From contig JBPOJN010000020.1 in NCBI GenBank assembly GCA_052033505.1, forward strand, positions 7,888-71,887: 64,000 nucleotides of DNA. Reading direction: 5' to 3'. The stretch is from Myxococcota bacterium (lineage in GTDB: Bacteria; UBA10199; JACPAL01; GCA-016699445). The first letter of the stretch is position 1. Each line of letters opens with the position of its first letter. Below the pieces are notes generated by a model. The model was not told the origin of the DNA. It saw only the letters and a program-made list of their open reading frames with translations, and did no database searches. Positions 16,247 through 16,775 of the stretch are shown in pieces. Made by a program: the position numbers and the translations under genes.

Positions 16247-16507
16247 ATGCAAGAGATCGCCTTTGATTGGGACCAGTGGAATGTTCAGAAGAATGAACTC
16301 AAGCACGGCGTTTCCTCCATAGAAGCCGAAAGCTGCTTCTACGATCCGAGCTTAAGCCTCTTTCAAGATACAAGGCATTCCTCGAGCGAGGAGGCCAGGT
16401 GCATTCTTTACGCCAAAAGCATGGAGTCTCGCATCCTCATGGTGGGATTCACGATCCGGGATCATCGGGTGCGCATCATTACGGCCCGGCCAGCCTCACG
16501 AAAATAA
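16247..16507 (+). CDS. brnT: BrnT toxin (DUF497 ribonuclease-type toxin)
   Basis: FDWDQWNVQKNELKHGVSSIEAESCFYDP...HSSSEEARCIL...ILMVGFTIRDHRVRIITARPASRKE matches the BrnT consensus (FeWDe.KnexNxxKHGVSFeEA...RIISAR). Confidence 0.75.
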   Translation: MQEIAFDWDQWNVQKNELKHGVSSIEAESCFYDPSLSLFQDTRHSSSEEARCILYAKSMESRILMVGFTIRDHRVRIITARPASRK

Positions 16508-16775
16508 AGGAAAGTTTATTAAGAAAACCTCTAGCCTGACCGAGATCCGGGATTACGACGACACGGAAACGACTGGCTTCATTGATAAGAGAAAAAGATT
16601 AAAAATCTCTGATCTGGGATTGAAACTCCCCGAGACCCCTCCCACGCAAGTGGTCTCTATCCGCCTCCCCACGCCGCTTCTGAATCAAATCCGGGCCCGG
16701 GCCAGTGCCCAGGATATTCCTTATCAGGCCCTGATCAAAATTTTGCTGTCTCGTTCCCTGAAAAAAGCGGCTTAA
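16506..16775 (+). CDS. brnA: BrnA antitoxin (RHH/CopG-like); no ATG/GTG/TTG start
   Basis: Open frame immediately after brnT translates to ...TEIRDYDDTETTGFIDKRKRLKISDLGLKLPETPPTQVVSIRLPTPLLNQIRARASAQDIPYQALIKILLSRSLKKAA*, the canonical BrnA C-terminus (SIRLPxxLLxxLKxxAxxxxIPYQSLIKxxL). There is no canonical start upstream of the TTG at 16620, so the start is probably ATT at 16518 (AGGA 6 nt upstream) or there is a sequencing error. Absent from the ORF track. Confidence 0.65.
   Translation, partial: KGKFIKKTSSLTEIRDYDDTETTGFIDKRKRLKISDLGLKLPETPPTQVVSIRLPTPLLNQIRARASAQDIPYQALIKILLSRSLKKAA

Follow-up and report, generated by a model that had tools for sequence, protein, structure and literature searches.

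The locus described here resembles the BrnT/BrnA type II toxin-antitoxin system. According to PMC10714953 and PMC11980606, operons of this kind are repressed by the BrnA-type antitoxin that they encode. In Aave_1720, a BrnT-like toxin of Acidovorax citrulli, the substitution E86A abolished RNase activity in vitro whereas toxicity was only slightly lower (PMC10714953), and the same Lys, His and Glu are stated as important in Brucella BrnT in the summary given by PMC10714953. Fusions of BrnT with BrnA occur naturally (PMC11980606). With respect to translation starts, AUU initiates at about 1–2% of AUG in E. coli reporters, and natural use of AUU is restricted to infC and pcnB (bioRxiv 10.1101/063800).

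In the present work we analysed a brnT/brnA-like pair on a stretch of 64,000 nucleotides, which is called the window throughout. A sequence-only reading of this stretch had described a clean open antitoxin frame downstream of brnT without a canonical start codon. We compared the locus with a nearly identical allele from an independent assembly, called the sister allele (locus L001), and with homologous loci of the same family. The features discussed are as follows.

16200..16220, + strand: palindrome TTGTAGTGT-TTG-ACACTACAA over the −35 box, an inverted repeat with a 9-pair stem
16209..16237, + strand: sigma-70-like promoter, TTGACA, 17 nt, TATTCT, with 10/12 consensus matches
16247..16507, + strand: brnT toxin gene, 86 aa, ending at a new TAA in place of the Glu87 codon
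16508..16534, + strand: former 3′ end of brnT, codons 88–95 and the old TAG stop (16532–16534), from alignment with L001, now outside the brnT translation
16508..16514, + strand: Shine-Dalgarno AGGAAAG of brnA, kept, with 3–6 nt spacing to codon 1
16518..16520, + strand: codon 1 of brnA, ATT in the window and ATG in the sister allele
16518..16775, + strand: brnA-like antitoxin frame, 85 codons and a stop, only codon 1 damaged
16620..16622, + strand: first canonical start, TTG, at codon 35, which would yield a 51-aa product with the ribbon-helix-helix only

The antitoxin frame and its missing start codon

Translation of window 16350–16775 showed that the antitoxin frame runs without interruption from 16356 up to its stop, TAA 16773–16775, and that both peptides quoted earlier, TEIRDYDDTETTGFIDKRKR and VVSIRLPTPLLNQIRARASAQDIPYQALIKILL, are encoded in it, so the clean open frame downstream of brnT is there as described. 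Its absence from the ORF track is equally real: because the ORF list holds only a 51-aa ORF in this frame, which begins at TTG 16620, ATG, GTG and TTG are absent between 16356 and that codon. The element AGGA (16508–16511) is followed by the six bases AAGTTT and then by ATT at 16518–16520, and a GGAG or GGAA element likewise precedes the ATG in the surveyed loci described below. TTG 16620 lacks a well-spaced Shine-Dalgarno, as GGGA immediately abuts it.

With the 85 codons from 16518 as query we found 236 homologues, which argue that brnA is no chance open frame, and the 120 matches listed are 80–110 aa long. The homologues inspected start with M-K-K or similar, and the alignment consensus begins with M. 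Nine conserved columns (E9, I10, D12, Y13, D14, T18, L28, L33 and G34) all lie before codon 35; because of these residues and of the length of the listed homologues, the 51-aa form is not the normal protein, and a start at 16620 would remove the conserved N-terminal part, as the sequence-only reading had stated. The alignment that it called for places the expected N-terminus at 16518. The window frame thus encodes the conserved E-I-x-D-Y-D motif, within residues 1–43, but its codon 1 is ATT and its first canonical codon is codon 35.

The frame scores 44.3 bits against Pfam CopG_antitoxin (PF12441; cut-off 28), the match covering profile positions 35–78 only. Since this alignment begins at profile position 35, some 34 positions of the profile should lie upstream of TTG 16620. 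Against the NCBIfam BrnA equivalog NF047399 the score is 26.4 bits, below the cut-off of 60. Judged by these profile scores the antitoxin is a member of PF12441 and stands outside BrnA in NCBIfam's strict sense, hence the earlier label ‘canonical BrnA’ is loose. In an AlphaFold monomer model built on the homologue alignment, helices 52–64 and 69–84 are modelled with pLDDT above 90, whereas the monomer does not show the strand, and residues 1–43 are extended and of lower confidence. Residues 44–85 are thus predicted to form a ribbon-helix-helix domain, and residues 1–43 look as expected of a toxin-binding arm. A search of solved structures gave none matching the antitoxin family by sequence, and Rfam gave nothing at the brnT/brnA locus. 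On the opposite strand a convergent 108-aa gene (window 16772–17098, −) overlaps the end of brnA by 4 nt with its own end; a 320-aa GTG ORF (16772–17734, −), which overlaps purC, is probably an over-extension of this gene.

The toxin gene and its promoter

The brnT gene starts with ATG at 16247 and stops with TAA at 16505–16507, and its product matches Pfam BrnT_toxin (PF04365) with 70 bits (cut-off 34.5) over profile positions 1–76 of 77. The conserved Lys-His pair is kept as K19 and H20; among 121 aligned sequences H20 is invariant and K19 is present in at least 90%. The C-terminal end of the protein is a different matter. In the same alignment, which includes the window protein, E87 is found in 120/120 homologues, R88 in 119/120 and Y91 in 115/120, and window BrnT is the only one of the 121 sequences that ends before E87. 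The conserved C-terminal Glu, encoded in the sister allele, is therefore missing in the window, where codon 87 is TAA. The earlier assignment of the brnT stop to 16505–16507 was correct in position, but this codon is no normal gene end, being a new nonsense codon (E87, GAA>TAA).

The 86-aa window BrnT is identical to an NCBI protein (P0121) encoded on a 101,172-bp contig, for which neither the 85-aa nor the 51-aa antitoxin is on record, in agreement with the absence of brnA from the ORF track. Queries of the gene-position index for the exact 86-aa BrnT and for the 51-aa BrnA gave no match.

Upstream, the brnT ATG lies 9 nt beyond the −10 box (TATTCT ends at 16237) and has no Shine-Dalgarno. 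From these two features, the brnT mRNA is probably leaderless or nearly so. The palindrome at 16200–16220 is a likely operator for the ribbon-helix-helix antitoxin, given that autoregulation has been published for brnTA (summary in PMC10714953).

A sister allele with both genes intact

The comparison allele comes from an independent public assembly, Logan ERR14173714, contig ERR14173714_23752 (42,416 bp). This contig spans window 1–39733 (loci L001, L003 and L004) with seven substitutions and no indels, and window 6518–26775 is identical to it save for positions 16501, 16505 and 16520, so that 3/7 of the substitutions are packed into 20 bp where brnT meets brnA. The substitutions, given as Logan > window, are listed here.

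16501, + strand: variant 1, C > A; brnT Arg85 CGC>CGA, silent
16505, + strand: variant 2, G > T; brnT Glu87 GAA>TAA
16520, + strand: variant 3, G > T; brnA ATG>ATT, and also brnT codon 92 GAA>TAA
132, 134 and 143: second cluster, C>T, C>T and A>G; CTC>TTT (L79F) and silent GGA>GGG
39485: the sole isolated difference, A>G, I341V in a 388-aa ORF (38465–39631)

The sister allele encodes a BrnT of 95 aa and a BrnA of 85 aa, and the ATG of its brnA occupies 16518–16520, with a 17-nt overlap with brnT. In this intact layout the brnA ATG is spelled by the BrnT codons for Tyr91-Glu92 (TAT GAA), and the Shine-Dalgarno lies inside the codons of the conserved BrnT tail. The sister antitoxin (P0001, the best match) is 85 aa long and differs from the window translation only at residue 1, M instead of I, and 84/85 brnA codons are identical between the two alleles. 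Thus the near-identical allele identifies ATT 16518 as the homologous start position, and the sequence-only reading, which had pointed to this ATT with AGGA 6 nt upstream and had also allowed for coupling or reinitiation at the brnT stop or for an inactivating substitution, was right about the position. Its option of an inactivating substitution gains support, as the ATT arose from the ATG by one G>T change. In the window the 17-nt overlap is replaced by a 10-nt gap owing to the new brnT stop, while the toxin-first order is kept. With a nonsense codon at brnT codon 87 and the loss of the brnA start, the window locus reads as a probably pseudogenised counterpart of the intact L001. Each allele is known from one assembly only.

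The second cluster, 132–143, sits in a 258-aa secreted repeat protein; we attempted to polarise it by means of homologues and gave this up, as residue 79 varies among them. A cobalamin riboswitch (Rfam RF00174, 74.5 bits; 38261–38440, +) lies directly upstream of the 388-aa ORF. The window also holds a second toxin-antitoxin pair at 21659–22221 (+), a Phd/YefM antitoxin followed by a ParE toxin, and judging by the sister contig's gene table (L001, 15142–15704) this pair appears to be intact there.

Ancestral state of the junction

For a survey of brnA starts, 53 of 80 loci fetched from GTDB genomes were analysed and the start could be assigned in 52. ATG was used in 50 of these 52 loci, GTG in two and a non-canonical codon in none. 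The commonest layout was the 17-nt overlap, present in 16 of the 40 loci with a detected upstream brnT end. In the surveyed loci the brnA ATG is usually spelled by the BrnT Tyr-Glu codons TAT GAA and its Shine-Dalgarno by the conserved Lys-Glu-Arg codons, and family-wide the toxin tail codons K-E-R-x-I-Y-E carry both antitoxin elements (loci L005–L059; window 16496–16534). The bases of this tail are thus under two constraints at once, and a single short lesion can damage both genes.

The junction is conserved at the DNA level in the three relatives aligned, all of which carry G at 16505 and at 16520. Hence both G>T changes are derived in the window. Position 16501 cannot be polarised, because two relatives (L085 and L005) carry A like the window. 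We also scanned GTDB genomes and JGI metagenomes with a junction pattern holding N at the three variable sites, and no match, thus no further allele, was found in them. Synteny with purC was of no help, as the brnTA of the closest relative sits in another neighbourhood. The PurC of the window itself comes closest to proteins from MAGs labelled ‘bacterium’ and ‘Deltaproteobacteria bacterium’, and the host is an uncultured bacterium.

A freshly disabled operon as the preferred explanation

We favour, with moderate confidence, the explanation that the window holds a chromosomal BrnT / CopG-type (BrnA-like) operon caught just after it was disabled or strongly attenuated; most likely it is an ordinary, freshly disabled toxin-antitoxin pair and no new mode of translation start. 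By this explanation, 16505 G>T would have turned the Glu87 codon into TAA, so that the toxin loses Glu87, Arg88 and Tyr91, and 16520 G>T would have turned the brnA ATG into ATT. Because the surrounding sequence is otherwise identical, the three changes may have arisen together in one multi-nucleotide event. Among seven substitutions placed at random in 39.7 kb, the probability of such a triple within 20 bp is 2.7e-5. On the other side, the A at 16501 is shared with distant relatives and not all three changes need be derived in the window, which weakens the case for a single event. That brnA is otherwise untouched (84/85 codons) is best read as the mark of a recent event.

The truncated toxin would be expected to have little or no RNase activity and to be inactive or much weakened. 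Synthesis of full-length BrnA would drop to a few percent of normal, starting from AUU, for which the kept Shine-Dalgarno would be used, possibly by ribosomes fresh from termination at the brnT stop 10 nt upstream; with the Shine-Dalgarno kept and the brnT stop at this distance, weak initiation or reinitiation at AUU is conceivable. Given the autorepression by antitoxins of the BrnA type, lower antitoxin levels should derepress both genes and raise the toxin:antitoxin ratio, and loss of the start codon alone should therefore be harmful. Loss of the antitoxin would then be tolerated only because the toxin was hit simultaneously. The sequence-only reading had held that translation must start at a rare codon; with a crippled toxin this is not required, as there is then no need for any antitoxin. 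The contrary inference can be drawn from Aave_1720, where E86A lowered toxicity only slightly: the truncated toxin might stay harmful and the antitoxin might still be needed.

As to the origin of the changes, templated mutation or gene conversion was considered and rejected, as no second copy of the mutated 27-mer is present in the window with up to three mismatches; a template for the 132–143 cluster was not found either. Through the two G>T changes, AAGAAA...TTTATG at 16503–16520 has become a perfect inverted repeat, AATAAA-GGAAAG-TTTATT. We rejected the AATAAA/TTTATT hairpin as a functional structure, because its RNA reaches only −1.3 kcal/mol and its 66-nt context is no more stable than shuffled sequences, and the inverted repeat around the Shine-Dalgarno is probably a coincidence.

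For annotation, the case shows an intact-looking 85-codon antitoxin frame that one base makes invisible to ORF callers, next to an apparently normal toxin stop that is itself a mutation, and comparison with the sister allele resolves both. A real allele of this kind would mean that a single short lesion of several bases can neutralise a toxin-antitoxin pair at a stroke when it strikes the overlap of the two genes, where the essential tail of the toxin shares its bases with the ribosome-binding site and start of the antitoxin. We regard the locus as a neat example without a new principle, a degenerate member of the known BrnT/BrnA kind.

Alternative explanations

The alternative that survives best, although we consider it rather unlikely, is that the three changes stem from the deposited contig itself, as errors of consensus or assembly or as a minority variant chosen by the assembler, and that the organism really has ATG and GAA; the only lesson would then be one of assembly quality. 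C>A and G>T are typical cross-talk miscalls of four-colour Illumina chemistry. The changes at the junction are of these types, the sequence around them is rich in A and low in complexity, and the only record of the window allele is a single NCBI contig, on which brnA is uncalled. The differences from the Logan contig, moreover, form two close groups of three (132/134/143 and 16501/16505/16520) and one single, which is unusual for independent natural mutations. These two clusters indicate that clumped differences characterise this pair of assemblies generally, and the clumping fits short error-prone repair patches as well as local consensus errors or minority haplotypes. But the assemblies differ at only seven positions in 39.7 kb and by no indel, which suggests that both are of high consensus quality. 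Assemblers invent no bases, hence the allele must dominate some read set. Moreover, random errors would rarely strike the start codon as well as a site that creates a nonsense codon; nonsense and start-loss changes account for 9 and 7, respectively, of the 108 possible substitutions in the 36-bp tail.

We also consider it unlikely, and somewhat more so, that the module still works, with full-length BrnA made from AUU 16518 by way of AGGAAAG and termination-reinitiation. Negative autoregulation would then lift transcription until the antitoxin suffices, and BrnT would keep some toxicity and antitoxin binding. The Shine-Dalgarno and its spacing are indeed intact, the brnA frame has no other lesion, and AUU is a proven bacterial start in infC and pcnB; but it is a weak one, at ∼1–2% of AUG, and with the toxin co-transcribed a 50–100-fold drop in antitoxin translation would invert the toxin:antitoxin ratio. 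Neither the surveyed loci nor the listed homologues have a non-canonical start, so that AUU is not conserved in the family. On the side of the toxin, the E86A variant of a BrnT-like protein kept most of its toxicity and the truncated BrnT still spans 1–76 of the 77-position Pfam model, whereas the disappearance of three near-invariant residues at once is more in keeping with decay than with re-tuning, and the TAA/ATT allele has been seen once only.

In an improbable variant of a working locus, the TAA/ATT allele would be a re-tuned module: ribosomes leaving the shortened brnT would stop right at the Shine-Dalgarno and start again at AUU, 10 nt further on. Production of the antitoxin would in that case depend strictly on translation of the toxin and would respond to IF3 and to stress. 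Still more speculative is a +1 shift at A-AAA-UAA, which would give a BrnT(1–86)-BrnA fusion. Finally, a 51-aa product from TTG 16620, acting as a ribbon-helix-helix-only repressor without a toxin-binding arm, is hardly credible, for although the frame has no canonical start other than TTG 16620 and the product would still match PF12441 at 44 bits and hold the whole predicted ribbon-helix-helix domain, it would be initiated without a well-spaced Shine-Dalgarno, would lose the nine conserved N-terminal positions and would fall short of the shortest of the 120 listed homologues (80 aa).

Comparison with known systems

Decayed brnTA loci are frequent in other MAGs, which counts in favour of the disabled operon proposed here, and several kinds of lesion occur in the same family. 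L043 (1440–1500) has an in-frame stop at brnA codon 10 and L033 (about 600–720) an internal brnT deletion, L007 and L057 hold brnT remnants, and L019 and L055 have brnA without brnT. The window differs from these loci in that a stretch of 16 bp holds the lesions of both genes and the remainder of the locus is pristine.

As far as the BrnT/BrnA type II system (2012) is summarised in PMC10714953 and PMC11980606, the window shares with it a toxin-first operon, a BrnT-fold RNase toxin of PF04365, the Lys-His pair (here K19 and H20) and an antitoxin with a (here predicted) C-terminal ribbon-helix-helix, and the palindrome over the window promoter is consistent with autoregulation. The window differs in that its antitoxin belongs to PF12441 and reaches only 26.4 of the 60 bits for the BrnA equivalog, its toxin lacks the C-terminal Glu, and its antitoxin lacks a canonical start. 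Compared with Aave_1720/Aave_1719, residues K17, H18, F29 and E86, all tested in Aave_1720, correspond to K19, H20, F31 and E87 in the BrnT numbering used here, a correspondence based on the shared K-H, F and K-E-R motifs. In contrast to the window proteins, Aave_1720 has an extra C-terminal helix, and the antitoxin Aave_1719 is reported to have RNase activity of its own (PMC10714953). With infC and pcnB of E. coli the locus has in common a Shine-Dalgarno before AUU at the start position, a setting in which initiation would be weak and IF3-sensitive (bioRxiv 10.1101/063800). But the AUU of infC is conserved and regulatory, whereas the ATT of the window is a one-off substitution of the ATG that is the rule in the family, and since AUU is not conserved among its orthologues, window brnA is not of the infC type.
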